This document shows, piece by piece, positions 9,137-36,863 of a stretch of DNA of 51,563 bases; the stretch's first letter is position 1, and each line of letters opens with the position of its first letter. Location of the stretch: UHGV virus genome UHGV-0189653; one strand, given 5' to 3'. Below the pieces are notes generated by a model. The model did no database searches, had not been told where the DNA came from, and saw only the letters and a list, made by a program, of their open reading frames with translations. The DNA is from a virus. The position numbers and the translations under genes were made by a program.

Positions 9137-12100
9137 ATGGGTAAAGGCAGCAGTAAGGGGCATACCCCGCGCGAAGCGAAGGACAACCTGAAATCCACGC
9201 AGCTGCTGAGTGTGATTGATGCCATCAGCGAAGGGCCGGTTGAAGGTCCGGTGGATGGATTAAAAAGCGTGCTGCTGAACAGTACGCCGGTGCTGGACAG
9301 TGAGGGGAATACCAATATATCCGGCGTCACGGTGGTGTTCCGGGCAGGTGAGCAGGAGCAGTCACCGCCGGAGGGGTTTGAATCCTCCGGCTCCGAGACG
9401 GTGCTGGGTACGGAAGTGAAATATGACACGCCGATCACCCGCACCATTACGTCTGCAAACATCGACCGTCTGCGCTTTACCTTCGGTGTGCAGGCACTGG
9501 TGGAAACCACCTCAAAGGGGGACAGGAATCCGTCGGAAGTTCGCCTGCTGGTTCAGATACAACGTAACGGTGGCTGGGTGACGGAAAAAGACATCACCAT
9601 TAAGGGCAAAACCACCTCGCAGTATCTGGCCTCGGTAGTGGTGGATAATCTGCCGCCGCGCCCGTTCAACATCCGGATGCGCAGGATGACGCCGGACAGC
9701 ACCACAGACCAGCTGCAGAACAAAACGCTCTGGTCGTCATACACCGAAATCATCGATGTGAAACAGTGCTACCCGAACACGGCACTGGTCGGCGTACAGG
9801 TGGATTCGGAGCAGTTCGGCAGCCAGCAGGTGAGCCGTAATTATCATCTTCGCGGGCGTATTCTGCAGGTGCCGTCGAACTATAACCCGCAGACGCGGCA
9901 ATACAGCGGTATCTGGGACGGAACGTTTAAGCCAGCATACAGCAACAACATGGCCTGGTGTCTGTGGGATATGCTGACCCACCCGCGCTACGGCATGGGT
10001 AAACGTCTTGGTGCGGCAGATGTGGATAAATGGGCGCTGTATGTCATCGGCCAGTGTTGCGACCAGTCGGTGCCGGACGGTTTTGGCGGCACGGAGCCGC
10101 GCATCGCCTGTAATGCGTACCTGACCACACAGCGAAAGGCGTGGGATGTGCTCAGTGATTTCTGCTCGGCGATGCGCTGTATGCCGGTATGGAACGGGCA
10201 GACGCTGACGTTCGTGCAGGACCGACCGTCGGATAAGGTGTGGACCTATAACCGCAGTAATGTGGTGATGCCGGATGATGGCGCGCCGTTCCGCTACAGC
10301 TTCAGCGCCCTGAAGGACCGCCATAATGCCGTTGAGGTGAACTGGATTGACCCGGACAACGGCTGGGAGACGGCAACAGAGCTTGTGGAGGACACGCAGG
10401 CCATTGCCCGTTACGGTCGTAACGTCACGAAGATGGATGCCTTTGGCTGTACCAGCCGGGGGCAGGCACACCGCGCCGGGCTGTGGCTGATTAAAACAGA
10501 ACTGCTGGAAACGCAGACCGTGGACTTCAGCGTGGGTGCCGAAGGGCTTCGCCATGTACCGGGCGATGTCATTGAAATCTGCGATGATGACTATGCCGGT
10601 ATCAGCATCGGCGGGCGCGTGCTGGCGGTAAACAGCCAGACACGGACGCTGACGCTCGACCGTGAAATCACGCTGCCATCCTCCGGTACCACGCTGATAA
10701 GCCTGGTTGACGGAAGTGGCAATCCGGTCAGCGTGGAGGTCCAGTCCGTCACCGACGGCGTGAAGGTAAAAGTGAGCCGTGTTCCTGACGGCGTTGCCGG
10801 ATACAGCGTATGGGGGCTGAAGCTGCCGACGCTGCGCCAGCGCCTGTTCCGCTGCGTGAGTATCCGTGAGAACGACGACGGCACGTATGCCATCACCGCC
10901 GTGCAGCATGTACCGGAAAAAGAAGCCATCGTGGATAACGGGGCGCACTTTGACGGCGAACAGAGTGGCACGGTGAACGGTGTCACGCCGCCAGCGGTGC
11001 AGCACCTGACCGCAGAAGTCACTGCAGACAGCGGGGAATATCAGGTGCTGGCGCGATGGGACACACCGAAGGTGGTGAAGGGTGTGAGCTTCCTGCTCCG
11101 TCTGACCGTAACAGCGGACGACGGCAGTGAGCGGCTGGTCAGCACGGCCCGGACGACGGAAACCACATACCGCTTCACGCAACTGGCGCTGGGGCGGTAC
11201 ACGCTGACAGTCCGGGCGGTAAATGCGTGGGGACAGCAGGGCGATCCGGCGTCGGTATCGTTCCGGATTGCCGCCCCGGCAGCGCCGTCGCGGATTGAGC
11301 TGACGCCGGGCTATTTTCAGATAACCGCCACGCCGCATCTTACCGTTTATGACCCGACGGTACAGTTTGAGTTCTGGTTTTCGGAAAAACGGATTGCTGG
11401 TATCAAGCAGGTTGAAACCACAGCGCGCTATCTTGGCACGGCGCTGTACTGGATAGCCGCCAGTATCAATATCAGGCCGGGCCATGATTATTATTTTTAC
11501 GTTCGCAGTGTGAACACCGTTGGCAAATCGGCATTCGTGGAGGCTGTTGGTCAGCCGAGTGATGATGCATCCGGTTATCTGGATTTTTTCAAAGGCGAGA
11601 TAGGGAAAACCCATCTGGCTCAGGAGCTGTGGACGCAGATTGATAACGGTCAGCTTGCGCCTGACCTGGCTGAAATCAGGACGTCCATTACGGATGTCAG
11701 CAATGAAATCACGCAGACCGTCAATAAGAAACTGGAAGACCAGAGTGCGGCAATTCAGCAGATACAGAAGGTTCAGGTTGATACAAATAATAACCTGAAC
11801 AGCATGTGGGCTGTGAAGCTGCAGCAGATGCAGGACGGACGCCTTTATATCGCGGGTATTGGTGCCGGTATTGAGAACACCCCTGACGGCATGCAGAGTC
11901 AGGTGCTGCTGGCGGCGGACAGGATTGCGATGGTTAATCCTGCGAATGGCAACACAAAACCGATGTTTGTTGGTCAGGGCGATCAGATATTCATGAACGA
12001 CGTGTTCCTGAAACGCCTGACGGCCCCCACCATTACCAGCGGTGGAAATCCACCGGCATTTTCCCTGACACCGGACGGAAAGCTGACTGCTAAAAATGCG

Positions 12101-12619
12101 GATATCAGTGGCAGTGTGAATGCGAACTCCGGGACGCTCAACAACGTCACGATTAATGAGAACTGTCAGATTAAGGGGAAACTGTCAGCCAATCAGATTG
12201 AAGGCGATATTGTCAAAACGGTCAGCAAGTCTTTCCCCCGCACGAACAGTTATGCCAGTGGCACCATCACGGTAAGAATCAGTGATGATCAGAAATTTGA
12301 CCGGCAGGTCATGATACCGCCAGTGTTATTCCGCGGTGGTAAGCATGAGAATTTCAACAGTAATAACCAACAGTCATACTGGTATTCAACCTGCCGGTTA
12401 AGAGTGACCCGCAATGGTCAGGAGATTTTTAATCAGTCCACGACGGATGCTCAGGGCGTATTTTCCTCCGTTATAGATATGCCTGCCGGACAGGGGACGC
12501 TGACACTGACATTCACCGTATCTTCATCAGGAGCGAATAACTGGACACCAACAACCAGTATCAGCGATCTGCTGGTTGTGGTGATGAAAAAATCCACAGC
12601 AGGTATCAGTATCAGCTGA
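9137..12619 (+). CDS. J: host specificity protein J (central tail fibre / tip attachment protein)
   Basis: 1160-aa ORF, N-terminus [24 protein letters not shown] as in lambda J; follows I. Confidence 0.9.
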
Positions 12620-12637
12620 ATTTTATAACCCAGAACG

Positions 12638-12662
12638 GGCGTCAGAAATGACGCCTTTTTTA
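12638..12662 (+). terminator. intrinsic terminator after J
   Basis: ggcgtca-gaaa-tgacgcc hairpin followed by T6. Confidence 0.6.
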
Positions 12663-12685
12663 TTGCAGAAAAGCGAGAGGTAATT

Positions 12686-13285
12686 ATGCGTAAAGTTTGT
12701 GCAGCAATTTTGTCCGCAGCCATCTGTCTGGCCGTATCCGGTGCGCCTGCATGGGCGTCTGAACATCAGTCCACGCTGAGCGCGGGGTATCTTCATGCCC
12801 GGACGAACGTTCCCGGCAGCGATGATCTGAACGGGATTAACGTGAAATACCGTTATGAGTTTACGGACACACTGGGGATGGTGACGTCATTCAGCTATGC
12901 AGGAGACAAGAATCGCCAGCTGACCCATTACAGCGATACCCGCTGGCATGAAGATTCCGTGCGTAACCGCTGGTTCAGCGTGATGGCGGGGCCGTCTGTG
13001 CGCGTGAATGAATGGTTCAGCGCGTATGCGATGGCGGGTGTGGCTTACAGCCGTGTGTCGACTTTCTCCGGGGATTATCTTCGCGTAACTGACAACAAGG
13101 GGAAAACGCACGATGTGCTGACCGGAAGTGATGACGGTCGCCACAGCAACACGTCTCTGGCGTGGGGAGCTGGCGTGCAGTTTAACCCGAACGAATCCGT
13201 GGCCATTGATATTGCTTATGAAGGTTCCGGCAGTGGCGACTGGCGCACTGACGGTTTCATCGTGGGTGTCGGTTATAAGTTCTGA
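12686..13285 (+). CDS. lom: Lom outer membrane protein (Ail/Lom/OmpX family beta-barrel)
   Basis: 199-aa ORF with signal peptide and C-terminal GYKF; matches lambda Lom; flanked by terminators. Confidence 0.9.
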   Translation: MRKVCAAILSAAICLAVSGAPAWASEHQSTLSAGYLHARTNVPGSDDLNGINVKYRYEFTDTLGMVTSFSYAGDKNRQLTHYSDTRWHEDSVRNRWFSVMAGPSVRVNEWFSAYAMAGVAYSRVSTFSGDYLRVTDNKGKTHDVLTGSDDGRHSNTSLAWGAGVQFNPNESVAIDIAYEGSGSGDWRTDGFIVGVGYKF

Positions 13286-13311
13286 TTAGCCAGGTAACAC
13301 AGTGTTATGAC

Positions 13312-13339
13312 AGCCCGCCGGTTCAGGCGGGCTTTTTTG
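13312..13339 (+). terminator. intrinsic terminator after lom
   Basis: agcccgcc-ggttca-ggcgggct hairpin followed by T6. Confidence 0.6.
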
Positions 13340-13343
13340 TGGG

Positions 13344-16300
13344 GTGAATATGGCAGTAAAGATTTCAGGTGTACTGAAAGACGGCACAGGAAAACCGGTA
13401 CAGAACTGCACAATCCAGCTGAAAGCAAAACGTAACAGCACCACGGTGGTGGTGAACACGCTGGCCTCAGAAAATCCGGATGAAGCCGGGCGTTACAGCA
13501 TGGACGTTGAGTACGGTCAGTACAGCGTTATTCTGTTGGTGGAAGGATTCCCGCCGTCACATGCCGGGACCATCACCGTGTATGAAGATTCTCAACCCGG
13601 TACGCTGAATGATTTTCTCGGTGCCATGACGGAGGATGATGCCCGTCCGGAGGCACTGCGCCGTTTTGAACTGATGGTGGAAGAGGTGGCGCGTAACGCG
13701 TCCGCGGTGGCACAGAACACGGCAGCCGCGAAGAAGTCAGCCAGTGATGCCAGCACATCAGCCCGTGAGGCGGCAACCCATGCGGCTGATGCTGCGGACT
13801 CAGCACGCGCAGCCAGCACGTCAGCCGGACAGGCCGCGTCGTCGGCTCAGTCAGCGTCTTCCAGCGCAGGAACGGCATCAACAAAGGCCACTGAAGCATC
13901 AAAAAGTGCTGCCGCTGCAGAGTCCTCAAAAAGCGCGGCGGCCACCAGTGCCGGTGCGGCGAAAACGTCAGAAACGAATGCTTCAGCGTCACAACAATCA
14001 GCAGCCACATCTGCATCCACCGCGACCACGAAGGCATCAGAAGCTGCGACCTCGGCCCGGGATGCGGCGGCCTCAAAAGAGGCGGCAAAATCATCAGAAA
14101 CGAGCGCAGCCTCGAGCGCCGGCAGTGCAGCTTCCTCGGCAACGGCGGCAGGAAATTCCGCGAAGGCCGCAAAAACGTCTGAGACGAATGCGGATAACAG
14201 CGCACAGGCGGCAGCAGACTCACAAACTGCATCGGCAAACTCCGCGACATCAGCCAAAAAATCAGAAACCAACGCGAAAAATAGTGAGGCAGCAGCAAAG
14301 GTCAGCGAAACCAACGCTAAAGCGTCAGAGAACAAGGCGAAAGAATATCTCGACAAGGTCGGGGGACTCGTCAGCCCGATGACGCAATACGATTGGCCCG
14401 TTGTTACTGGTAGTGAGTCTTTTTACATAAAGATCGCGAAACTTTCCGATCCTGGAAGCAACAATTGCCATGTAACGCTAATGGTTACTAATGCCGGTAA
14501 CTACGGCTCCCCTTACGGAAACATTGACTTTATCGAGATCTCGGCGCGCGGTCTGCCTTCTTTGCTTAGTGCGGATAATGTTTCTCGTCATCTGAGTATA
14601 CGCCGCTTAGGGTCAACCGGGCTGACCGATAACAACCAGATGCGTTACGGCCTGGTTAAAGGTGACGGCTTTATTGAGGTTTGGGCATTCCAGGGTGCGT
14701 TTATTAACGACGCAAAGGTTGCGGTGCTGGCGCAGACAACACTAAACACAGAATTATACATTCCAGACGGATTTGTTAAGCAAACCGCCGCGCCTTCTGG
14801 ATATATTGAAGGCAACGTTGTAAGGATTTACGACCAGGTAAACAAGCCGACTAAAGCAGATTTGGGTCTTTCTAATGCTATGCTTACAGGCGCTTTCGGT
14901 CTTGGCGGTAGCGGGATATCAACAAACGGCAAGATGAGCGATGTAGAGATCTTAAAAGCTCTGCGTGACAAAGGTGGTCATTTCTGGCGCGGTGATAAGC
15001 CGACCGGAAGCACGGCGACCATTTATAGCCACGGTTCTGGTATATTCTCGCGGTGCGGCGATACGTGGTCAGCGATCAATATCGACTACTCAACCGCGAA
15101 GATTAAGATCTATGCCGGCAACGATGCCCGGCTTAACAACGGGACTTTTAGCGTCAATGAGCTATACGGAACCAAAAACAAGCCGTCGAAATCGGATGTT
15201 GGACTCGGCAACGTAACTAACGATGCGCAGGTGAAAAAATCCGGCGATGTTATGTCAGGTGATCTTGATATATTGAAAGAAACGCCGTCTATCAGGCTAA
15301 AATCAGCAAAAGGAACCGCTCATCTGTGGTTCATGAACAACGACGGCGAGCGCGGCGTTGTTTGGGCGCCTGTAAATACTGATACGCTTGGCGAAGTTCG
15401 CATCAGGGCTAAAAACGCAAAAGGTGAATCAAGTGGTGATTTTGTTGTTCGCCACGACGGGAGGGTTGATGCCCGCGATCTAAAAGTAACGTACAAAATC
15501 AGTGGAGCCACCGCAGAGCTTGCAAACACATCAACTGACGTGGCTAATACTACGTTAAAAATCAGCGGATCACAGCATACGCCTTTAGTTTTAACTCGCA
15601 GTGGAGAAATTAAAAACTTATCCATTGGGTTTAAGGTTGATGATGTTGAACAAAAATATCTCGGCGTATACGGTGACGGTAATTTGTATTTCGGTAATTC
15701 CTCTGACCACTCAAAAAACAGCAGAGTAATTACACAAGCAATACTCGATAGCGGGGTAACGGTAGGCGGTAAAACAACATTTTCTGACCTTGCCACATTT
15801 AACGCTGGCATATCTGGCGCAATCGAACCTGAAAGCATTTCTGAAGTGACCGTTGATCTTAATGATCTGACCATTAAAGGCACAGATAAAGGATCGGTTA
15901 AATACTATCAGTGCAGAACTGCCGGAGGTGGTGCGAATATTACCAATAAGCCTGACGGCGTAGGCGGTAACTTTTTGCTTCGTGTAGAGTCGATTCGTAA
16001 GATTAGGGATTCAGATTATGCGAACATGCAAACGCTGATTGGCAGCGACACAAAACGTATATACGTTCGCTTTGTTGTTAATGGAAACTGGACAGCGTGG
16101 AGTCAGGTTGTTGTTTCCGGATGGAATCAGGATGTAACCGTCAGGTCGTTAACCTCGACGACTCCATCAAAATTAGGTGGCGGGCGTGTTGACGTGCTTG
16201 GAAGTACGTCAGATTACAACAGCATGAATTGTGCTGTGCGTGGTGTTGATAACACTGGAACCAATTCGGCGTGGTCGGTAGGTACATCAGAAAGCACAGG

Positions 16301-22966: not shown

Positions 22967-23155
22967 TCACGAGGACTGAAGTTTCTCGCAATTAAAATTT
23001 ATCAGTTTTACTTTCTGCTCTCTGGAAACGCCTGCTTCTTTTTTACCTGAGAGCATTTTTTCGCATTCTGATTTCGTTAGTTTAGATTTTGAATATCTTG
23101 TCCAGTTAGTAGGAGTGCCACCTTCCTTTTCAATAGTGGCGGTAATTTTATACAT
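22967..23155 (-). CDS. ydaC: YdaC-like protein, function unknown
   Basis: Start MYKITATIEKEGG overlaps the lar stop (translational coupling); Rac order. Confidence 0.55.
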   Translation of the reverse strand: MYKITATIEKEGGTPTNWTRYSKSKLTKSECEKMLSGKKEAGVSREQKVKLINFNCEKLQSS

Positions 23156-34924: not shown

Positions 34925-35446
34925 TGAAAATTCCTCAAGTTGGAGAGTTCTGGAACATTAAGGCGAGGTGGCAGTAATGCACCATCTGTAATCTTTTGAT
35001 ACTGACGTAATCGGGCCTGATGTGCAACGCCTTGCAAGTATGTAACTCATTGAAAACGATCATTTTTATCTATTGACATCAAATGGCAAACTGTCATTGT
35101 GCGGCTATGGCAAGTGGCAAATGCTTATAAATCATATGGATATAAATAGTACAGAAAGAGTTGTTTTCTCTAGGATATGAGTATACGCCCAATGCTGATT
35201 GGTTGAATTTTGTTCTTGTTTTAAAGGGTAAGAGTTTAAAGTGTTGGCAGTGATGTATTGGATAGTTAGAATTGCTGTGGGTGCTTGAGGCTATCTGCCT
35301 CGGGCATGAACACCAAAGGTAGATAGAGAAAAGCCCCAGTTAACATTACGCGTCCTGCAAGACGTTTAACATTAATCTGAGGCCATATCTATGCGACACA
35401 TAGAGATTAGCCTCTTACGGACCGAAAGGTCAAGGAGAAGCAGGCT

Positions 35447-35572
35447 ATGAAGCAGCAAAAGGCGATGTTAATCGCCCTGATCGTCATCTGTTTAACCGTC
35501 ATAGTGACGGCACTGGTAACGAGGAAAGACCTCTGCGAGGTACGAATCCGAACTGGCAGACGGAGGCTCTGA
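35447..35572 (+). CDS. hok: Hok-family type I toxin (HokD/RelF-like), C-terminally altered
   Basis: ORF MKQQKAMLIALIVICLTVIVTALVTRKDLCEVRIRTG then RRRL*; leader 35270-35446 carries hok-mRNA-like elements (GCTTGAGGCTATCTGCCTC; TTAGCCTCTTAC...AAGGAGAAG) and a short mok-like ORF ending at the hok ATG. Confidence 0.6.
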   Translation: MKQQKAMLIALIVICLTVIVTALVTRKDLCEVRIRTGRRRL

Positions 35573-35654
35573 TTCGTAGACTACTAATCTGAGTAAAAGA
35601 CCCAGCGGGGAAAGAACCACGCCGGGACTAGTTAATAAGATATTTATAGCGTGG

Positions 35655-35996
35655 CTATTCTTTTTTTGCGGTATAGACTTTTTCGCCTGAGAAGTCTGGA
35701 GCTACCCAAAAGTTAATATTAAACTGAGCATCATCGCTTAGTTCAACACGGTGCCAGTATTGTGGTGGGCTTGTTGCAAAAGCGCCAGCATTAATGACTA
35801 CTTTTATCTCCGGTTCAGTAGCATTCTCATCAGCAAAACCATAATATGTTACAGTACCTTCCATCACGCATAACTGTCCAAAAACACCTGCTGCTGTATT
35901 ATGATGTGTTAATAACGCTGAAGGTACGTTCTCTTTTGTGAAGAACGGAGTTGAGCGTTTGATTACCCAGTCTTTAGGAATTCTCTTGTGTGTCAT
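35655..35996 (-). CDS. YeaR-like DUF1971 protein (TehB N-domain-like)
   Basis: 113-aa product from ATG at 35996 with RBS GGGAGG; sequence resembles YeaR as I recall it. Confidence 0.65.
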   Translation of the reverse strand: MTHKRIPKDWVIKRSTPFFTKENVPSALLTHHNTAAGVFGQLCVMEGTVTYYGFADENATEPEIKVVINAGAFATSPPQYWHRVELSDDAQFNINFWVAPDFSGEKVYTAKKE

Positions 35997-36009
35997 AACC
36001 ACCTCCCAT

Positions 36010-36034
36010 AAAACATGCATTATAAATGCACCTT
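36010..36034 (-). promoter_or_regulatory. NsrR-like operator overlapping the promoter of the yeaR-like gene
   Basis: Minus-strand GGTGCATTTATAATGCATGTT: inverted repeat of the ATGCAT core resembling my recollection of the NsrR consensus; contains TATAAT; TTGACA 21 nt upstream. Confidence 0.45.
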
Positions 36035-36863
36035 TTTGAGGGTTATGTCAAGCTGTTATGAAACACATAATTGATATGTTGATTAGAGGAGAAGATAGAA
36101 TCAATATGGTTGTTTTTCGTATAACTATTTGTTTTACTTTTAGTTTGTGCATTCTGTGTGTTAGGAATAACTTATTAAAGTTTAACTAAAAAATCTCGAT
36201 ATAGTCCGCATAGATTACTGTTACTGAATCTTATTGTGTGCATTAGTTGTGTTCTGAAATTTCAATTTAATTACTTATGATATATTTTTAACGATAAATG
36301 TTTTCCGGGTGAAAGACAGTGGGGGATGAGATAAGCAATATATCATTAATCTTGATTATTTCCAGGATGCCTTTACTGTGTATATAAATAAATCATATAC
36401 GCATCAAATAATGTAAAGGCATCCTTTTAGATATATCTTATCAAATGTTAATGATTTGAGTGGGAAACATGATTCCAGAAACTAATCATGCGGCTACTTT
36501 ATAAAAATAATGCCCATATAAAACAGCCAGCGAAAAGGATTACGGATAAAAAAGGAGCGAGATGTGCATAGTTGTTATTTTCCATGTTTAACCACCTTAA
36601 ATAATTGATGATGACGGGATGTGCATCTGTAATGCTTTTGTTGAAATGTTATGATAAAAAAGAACTTTTTCATAACATTAAAATGTAATTTATCTAATCG
36701 TTTTTAATAATAAGTGTTGTATTTCTATCCTTGTATCAGCTATTTGATATGTAGTGTTTGTTCATGTTATGTGGAGCTTTACACCATAGCCAGTTTATTT
36801 ATACTTTATTCGTCAGCCTGAACAACTGGCATCTGCTGCACTGCGCCATCGAGAGATTGAGAA

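Follow-up and report, generated by a model that had tools for sequence, protein, structure and literature searches.

The virus genome UHGV-0189653 was analysed over its full length of 51,563 nucleotides, which is referred to here as the window. On its minus strand it carries a gene of the DUF1971 family (35655..35996; 113 amino acids (aa) plus stop codon), which is preceded by a predicted operator for the host regulator NsrR. We consider it likely that gene and operator form a self-contained promoter-operator-gene cassette that stems from an enterobacterial chromosome, resides in a Rac-like temperate phage and is expressed under the NsrR of the host. In this way the phage probably adds a defence gene inducible by nitric oxide (NO) to the bacterium. 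What is new here is the vehicle: gene and operator reach a minority of E. coli and Shigella strains through an inducible Rac-like phage. Control of DUF1971 genes by NsrR is not new, as it has been predicted since 2005 and was shown for yeaR and STM1808, and no new mechanism is involved.

The predicted operator is a 23-bp inverted repeat of 11-1-11 architecture, AAGGTGCATTTATAATGCATGTT (36012..36034, minus strand), which was assigned by matrix score and conservation. With respect to the ATG it is located 16-38 nt upstream, and with respect to the ribosome-binding site (RBS) 4-26 nt upstream; the initial annotation, made from the sequence without database searches, had placed it 15-40 nt from the RBS, which is not accurate. 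The same annotation had described an overlap with a TATAAT hexamer, which is indeed present (36019..36024), and a resemblance to the consensus of NsrR operators, for which it suggested a scan with a position weight matrix. Such a palindromised log-odds matrix was built from the 27 sites (26 distinct) with 11-1-11 architecture in E. coli CFT073, where NsrR sites were obtained by chromatin immunoprecipitation and sequencing (ChIP-seq) combined with PatSer (PMC5320621, Table 4). The palindrome scores 26.0 bits with the window background and 26.6 bits with a uniform background, and the second-best site in the window reaches 12.1 bits, so that the match is far stronger than a mere resemblance.

Among 27 entries, namely the palindrome and the leave-one-out scores of the 26 CFT073 sites, the window site ranks second. 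Only ytfE is higher (30.6 bits), and hcp (25.1), tehA (24.3), yeaR (22.5), ygbA (20.9) and hmp (17.9) follow. The exact tail probability per position is between 2e-10 (uniform background) and 7e-9 (70% AT background), which corresponds to 1e-5 to 4e-4 expected sites at this score per window and 1e-3 to 4e-2 per 5.2-Mb genome. When the window was resampled 200 times with a first-order Markov model, the maximum was on average 14.4 bits and never exceeded 21.7 bits. The site list of CFT073 itself (PMC5320621) does not contain an equivalent site, and this strain thus probably lacks the prophage gene.

The start codon of the DUF1971 gene is the ATG at 35996, with the strong RBS GGGAGGTGG (35999..36007, minus strand; read from the sequence) just upstream and GGAGG kept at this position in the orthologues. 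Read along the minus strand, the order of elements is CTTGACA-TAACCCTCAAA-AAGGTGCATTTATAATGCATGTT-TTAT-GGGAGGTGG-TT-ATGACACACAAG... RefSeq annotates the same 342-nt coding sequence (CDS) with the same start (WP_001445776.1) at a 99.9%-identical locus of E. coli 50579417, and the N-termini of all orthologues, MSH or MTH, align with the start of the 113-aa protein. A longer open reading frame (ORF) of 121 aa in the mechanical list (35655..36020) begins with an ATG inside the palindrome; due to the RefSeq annotation and the N-termini of the orthologues, the 113-aa ORF was preferred.

The assignment to DUF1971 was already made in the initial annotation and is confirmed by Pfam (PF09313, E = 3e-26, 91.6 bits at a gathering score of 23.1 bits, profile positions 1-80 of 80). 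The label "yeaR-like" that came with it is correct for the family but not for orthology. Identity to E. coli YeaR is 44% over 101 residues, and the match to TehB is partial and below threshold (48 bits versus a cut-off of 303 bits). A protein database search yielded 468 relatives, with orthologues of 77-83% identity in Salmonella enterica, Klebsiella, Raoultella, Kluyvera, Citrobacter, Vibrio, Aliivibrio, Photobacterium and Shewanella. In an alignment of 17 sequences including the window protein, H31, H32, C43 and H82 are invariant. The closest solved structure is PDB 3DL3 from V. fischeri (residues 1-112, E = 2.6e-59; about 80% identity by inspection of the alignment), followed by 3BB6, which is E. 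coli YeaR (E = 4.6e-25). Because of these two matches, the fold of the window protein is taken as known.

The Salmonella orthologue, which is about 80% identical, is located in the order fadR-nhaB-dsbB-[gene]-ycgN-ycgM-ycgL. This is the position of STM1808, as STM1806 is nhaB and STM1807 is dsbB on the LT2 map. Judged from the sequence comparison, the phage gene is a paralogue and not an orthologue of yeaR, and it is the counterpart of Salmonella STM1808 rather than of YeaR or TehB, since identity is about 80% versus 44%, the nhaB-dsbB synteny identifies the Salmonella gene, and the TehB match is sub-threshold. STM1808 is said to have been described by Karlinsey and colleagues in 2012 as a zinc protein in which H32 and H82 are needed for NO resistance. 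Both proteins have 113 aa and share His32 and His82, and both genes have an 11-1-11 NsrR box directly upstream. The box at the STM1808 position of S. enterica is AAGGTGTATATTAAATACACCTT, which scores 25.6 bits and has the left arm AAGGTG in common with the window box. However, STM1808 belongs to the chromosome, where it is fixed between dsbB and ycgN, and its box is at -50, whereas only a minority of E. coli have the phage gene, which is carried by an inducible Rac-like phage and has its box at -38 and a promoter layout similar to that of Kluyvera and Leclercia. In PMC7527575, which refers to Karlinsey et al. 2012, STM1808 is counted among the genes regulated by NsrR and is connected with virulence.

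The predicted operator was then compared across 80 loci (one genome per species), in which 250 nt upstream of each orthologue were scored with the same matrix. The enterobacterial part of this set comprises 55 loci from more than 15 genera, including Kluyvera, Leclercia, Silvania, Pseudescherichia, Buttiauxella, Enterobacter, Pantoea, Citrobacter, Klebsiella, Raoultella, Salmonella, Yokenella, Phytobacter and Intestinirhabdus. An NsrR box of 24-30 bits was found in 52 of the 55 loci and one of at least 20 bits in 54, located either at -38 to -41 (Kluyvera type) or at -48 to -50 (Citrobacter/Klebsiella/Salmonella type). The best score elsewhere in these 6-kb loci is usually 2-14 bits. The one exception is Leclercia adecarboxylata, in which the box at -40 has lost its central base and thus has an 11-0-11 structure (AAGGTGTATTT-AAATGCATGTT, 12 bits), which makes it a natural spacing mutant. 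Among the 25 loci from Vibrionaceae, Shewanella, Agarivorans and Neptunomonas, a box was found in only three, all of them from Photobacterium. In two loci of Neptunomonas and one of Photobacterium, an NsrR-like site of 22-24 bits is present at a distance of more than 250 nt from the orthologue start; there the gene may be part of a longer NsrR-controlled operon.

Synonymous sites between the window gene and the orthologues of other genera are saturated (proportion of synonymous differences, pS, 0.79-0.94), at a nucleotide identity of 72-73%. As the box has been kept over this distance, it is a clear phylogenetic footprint. The alignment of the upstream regions contains only four conserved islands, which are a Fur-box-like element, the -35 (CTTTACA), the NsrR box and the RBS. 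Kluyvera-type orthologues have TTTACA-17 bp-TATTTT with the -10 in the left arm of the box, the Klebsiella type has TTGACG-17 bp-CATATT, and overall the hexamers found at the 17-bp position are TATTTT, CATATT or CATTAT. The layout of the phage copy, with its box at about -40 and a CTTnACA -35, resembles the Kluyvera/Leclercia type and not the Salmonella/Citrobacter type. Since the box is kept at the same place across genera, promoter, operator and gene appear to travel as a unit and were probably captured together by the phage. A recent capture from one of the sampled species was also considered, but is ruled out by the identity of only about 72-73% to every genus tested and by the saturation of synonymous sites.

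The Fur-box-like element (GATAATGAGATTTATTATC, about -95 to -75 from the ATG) is located just 5' of the -35 and matches 13-17 of 19 consensus positions. It is found in the chromosomal loci of Kluyvera, Leclercia, Buttiauxella, Pseudescherichia and Intestinirhabdus and in some Photobacterium, and is absent from loci of the Salmonella/Citrobacter/Klebsiella type. For the chromosomal orthologues that have it, this suggests dual control by Fur and NsrR. Fur co-regulation of the phage copy was rejected, because the window matches the Fur consensus at only 11 of 19 positions.

In the phage copy, the candidate -35 hexamer, a perfect TTGACA (36046..36051, minus strand; read from the sequence), corresponds in the alignment to CTTTACA, which is conserved among the orthologues of the Kluyvera type, and it does not vary among 35 prophage alleles. 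The candidate -10 region (36019..36028, minus strand; likewise read from the sequence) offers two hexamers, both inside the operator, for a promoter that is itself putative. Whichever of them is used lies in the box, so that occlusion of RNA polymerase by NsrR would be the natural mechanism. As long as no NO is present, holo-NsrR, which contains an iron-sulfur cluster, would bind the 11-1-11 palindrome; as this covers the -10 region and the likely transcription start, the bound repressor would block RNA polymerase. NO would nitrosylate the cluster, NsrR would leave the DNA, and the 113-aa DUF1971 protein would be made. By analogy with STM1808, this would be a small metal-binding cupin-like protein that aids growth under nitrosative stress. 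NsrR binding, the use of this promoter, induction by NO and a benefit to the lysogen are what we infer from the sequence data.

Further evidence comes from the variation among 35 E. coli-type contigs from IMG/VR, which served as the allele set. Between the window and the H14 alleles, the CDS has a pS of 0.094 and a corresponding non-synonymous value (pN) of 0.004, which gives a pN/pS of 0.04. The CDS is thus under strong purifying selection while it is phage-borne. Eight operator haplotypes were found, with AAGGTG, AACACG and AAGATG...TTTTTAAT forms among them. They score between 17.7 and 28.6 bits, and some are nearer to the consensus than the window allele.

Several observations weigh against control by NsrR in the phage setting. 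The 50 nt between the -35 and the ATG (35997..36046) are a polymorphism hot spot, in which 16 of 49 sites segregate, compared to 50 of 495 in the remaining intergenic sequence (Fisher P = 5e-5); for the operator box alone the number is 7 of 23 (P = 0.008). The commonest haplotype, AACACGCATTT..., which occurs in 18 of the 35 contigs as well as in H14 and Shigella, has a T5 to C exchange at a conserved position of the left half-site and scores 20.7 bits versus 26.6 bits for the window. The promoter is not canonical: CATTTA (36023..36028) has a spacing of 17 bp from TTGACA but is a poor hexamer, and the perfect TATAAT in the centre of the operator is 21 bp away. A scan for consensus promoters and terminators called nothing at the DUF1971 gene. 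The phage copy lacks the Fur-like box that chromosomal orthologues of the Kluyvera type have, so that the regulation was not copied intact. Finally, we found no report of this locus, or of any phage moron controlled by NsrR, in the open-access literature. It is chiefly due to the operator polymorphism, for which tuning, recombination or relaxed constraint may be the cause, that our confidence in NsrR control is not higher.

The same observations can be read as signs that the box is an inherited relic, no longer selected or effective in E. coli prophages, and that the gene is constitutive, silent or driven from elsewhere. Operator and 5' untranslated region are the most polymorphic part of the locus, the majority haplotype damages the left half-site, the -10/-35 geometry is poor, and the Fur-like box has been lost. 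Still, every one of the eight haplotypes retains a score within the range given above, and the seven segregating box positions (3, 4, 5, 11, 12, 17 and 21) are mostly of low information, with a mean of 0.53 versus 0.87 bit. The 20.7 bits of the commonest haplotype are within the leave-one-out range of ygbA and hmp and equal or exceed these bona fide targets, and the low pN/pS of the CDS indicates that the gene is in use. We therefore regard a relic as distinctly unlikely. Alternatively, NsrR may repress the gene while an activator or another signal is needed in addition, which would be compatible with NsrR control as proposed here. A precedent is yeaR-yoaG, for which Lin and colleagues reportedly found in 2007 that NarL is needed for expression. 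The lack of a canonical sigma-70 hexamer pair at 16-18 bp spacing would fit this explanation, as an activator could account for a weak core promoter, and there is hardly any variation in the block from -100 to -51 (36047..36096), in which 2 of 50 sites segregate in the 35 alleles and which contains the inverted repeat TTATG-N5-CATAA. However, compared with the intergenic background this low variation lacks significance (P = 0.21), a doubtful 43-aa ORF on the opposite strand overlaps with the block, and inspection by eye alone gave no convincing FNR, CRP or NarL motif. A requirement for an activator thus seems unlikely, though less so than a relic.

Another protein, such as a phage repressor, IscR or ArgR, could also bind the palindrome, or the palindrome could be a chance AT-rich one around a -10. 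AT-rich palindromes are common in promoters and this one overlaps TATAAT, and by eye TGCAT-N5-ATGCA loosely recalls the ARG box TGAAT-N4-ATTCA. A chance origin, however, is excluded by the score statistics and by the conservation across genera in non-phage contexts. No further copy of the palindrome was found by the matrix scan over the window; this speaks against a phage repressor operator, as these come in sets. The spacing is unlike that of ARG boxes and the sequence unlike the type 1 and type 2 motifs of IscR, and inspection by eye alone gave no convincing ArgR or IscR motif. Taken together, we consider this explanation extremely improbable, and control by NsrR as outlined above is preferred. 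This agrees with the initial annotation, which had suggested a moron connected to the nitrosative-stress regulon of the host.

That the gene is prophage-borne, as the initial annotation had proposed, holds for the window and beyond. The window contains an intact Rac-like lambdoid prophage with integrase, recET, cI/cro, O/P-like genes, Q, lysis, terminase and tail genes. The antitoxin small RNA RalA of the Rac ralR/ralA system was found at 22971..23149 (plus strand; 225 bits versus Rfam), and this match confirms that the prophage is Rac-like. The gene order is kilR, sieB, ydaF, cI/cro-like, ydaT, replication genes, DUF1627, DUF977, a KilA-N gene and hok/sok, followed by the DUF1971 gene on the opposite strand, an 800-bp spacer, DUF1367, DUF1364, DUF1133/Q, lysis genes, trkG and terminase. 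The DUF1971 gene is thus located between the replication and nin modules, on the strand opposite to the early-right genes. The DUF1367 gene is annotated in phage ON470614 as Gifsy-2 protein STM1020/STM2620.

Phages vB_EcoS-666R9, -673R7 and -613R10, whose genomes are complete from integrase to tail, carry the cassette at 100% identity, and they are the only three of 50,697 phage records in which tblastn detected a DUF1971 protein. In complete E. coli genomes, the gene was found in 466 of 5426 (103 at 99% identity or more, 355 at 95-99% and 8 at 90-95%), compared to 4802 for the sequences that flank it. The gene order of the Rac prophage in K-12 is known to be without the DUF1971 gene. In three chromosome-sized E. 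coli records from a plasmid collection the best match was YeaR (43-45%), which is consistent with our view that most E. coli appear to lack a chromosomal STM1808 orthologue. Salmonella, Citrobacter, Klebsiella and Kluyvera keep an STM1808-type gene on the chromosome.

Downstream of the gene, a terminator-like hairpin is predicted at 35595..35629 (minus strand), with a 7-bp core stem (CCCGGCG/CGCUGGG) followed by UCUUUU. It is located 26 nt past the stop codon, and the 96-nt stretch folds at -23.2 kcal/mol (z = -2.3). The consensus terminator scan missed it because its loop exceeds 8 nt; the promoter and terminator assignments thus rest on inspection, orthologue alignment and folding. GC content is 37-44% in the DUF1971 cassette, 25-33% in the adjoining spacer and roughly 50% in the phage. 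From its own -35, its RBS, the downstream hairpin with U-tract and the distinct GC content we infer that the cassette has a moron-like anatomy.

The hok/sok locus (35279..35572, plus strand; Rfam sok match at 35279..35449) is convergent with the DUF1971 gene, and read-through from an NO-regulated promoter would run antisense to hok. The hok ORF itself (35447..35572) encodes 41 aa ending in ...RIRTGRRRL; as Hok proteins usually have about 50 aa, it may be frameshifted. In the commoner allele, represented by strain H14 and Shigella flexneri, homology to the window stops exactly at the stop codon of the DUF1971 gene. In place of hok/sok, this allele has a cargo island inside the Rac-like prophage (9187..15437 of the H14 locus) with an MFS transporter, a gamma-glutamylcyclotransferase, a LysR regulator, DUF2254 and a BCCT transporter. 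On the other side, the 800-bp spacer of 25-33% GC between the DUF1971 promoter and DUF1367 (36060..36860) is rich in insertions and deletions about 300-380 nt upstream of the ATG. The 43-aa ORF mentioned above (36058..36189, plus strand), which is annotated in ON470614, has premature or extended stops and many non-synonymous changes among the alleles and is probably not coding. It was also considered as the cause of the invariant block from -100 to -57, which was not upheld; conservation of the block is in any case at P = 0.21.

The individual parts of the system have relatives among known ones. "tehB homologs" were predicted as members of NsrR regulons in enterobacteria and Photobacterium profundum by Rodionov et al. 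2005 (PMC1274295). The yeaR-yoaG operon of E. coli encodes a DUF1971 protein and has an NsrR box, AAATGGTATTTAAAATGCAAATT, in the yeaR promoter (22.5 bits). In contrast to the monocistronic prophage gene, which is not accompanied by yoaG, yeaR is followed by yoaG and activated by nitrate and NarL. The operators of ytfE, hcp, hmp and ygbA have the same 11-1-11 palindrome, and that of ygbA (AAGGTGCATTTATA) is identical to the window box in left arm and spacer. They overlap the -10 region and the start site, as is predicted here. However, these operators are backed by ChIP, electrophoretic mobility shift assays and reporter fusions, whereas the phage operator is predicted from sequence. On the protein side, 3DL3 was deposited by structural genomics as "tellurite resistance protein B", and neither 3DL3 nor 3BB6 has an assigned function; most of the Vibrio and Aliivibrio orthologues have no NsrR box in the 250 nt upstream. 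Known phage morons that respond to stress regulators of the host include stx1, which is controlled by Fur, and sodCI of Gifsy-2, which is controlled by PhoPQ. Like the DUF1971 gene, these are independent transcription units in lambdoid prophages that are wired to a host sensor of the infection environment, but here the regulator is NsrR and the cargo a DUF1971 gene.

If our interpretation is true, a temperate phage moves a stress gene together with a ready-made link to a conserved host sensor, and the cargo would be correctly regulated at once when a new strain is lysogenised. The cassette would then be a mobile member of the E. coli/Shigella NsrR regulon, present in about 9% of complete genomes and invisible to studies of K-12 or CFT073, and the natural operator variants (17.7-28.6 bits) would be of use for studies of NsrR affinity. 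Clinical lineages that are exposed to NO from the host could also be affected in their fitness. As a more tentative possibility, the Rac-like phage may give E. coli and Shigella an NO-inducible resistance factor that makes the lysogen fitter in the inflamed gut, the urinary tract or macrophages, and the operator polymorphism may reflect ongoing tuning of NsrR repression across host backgrounds.

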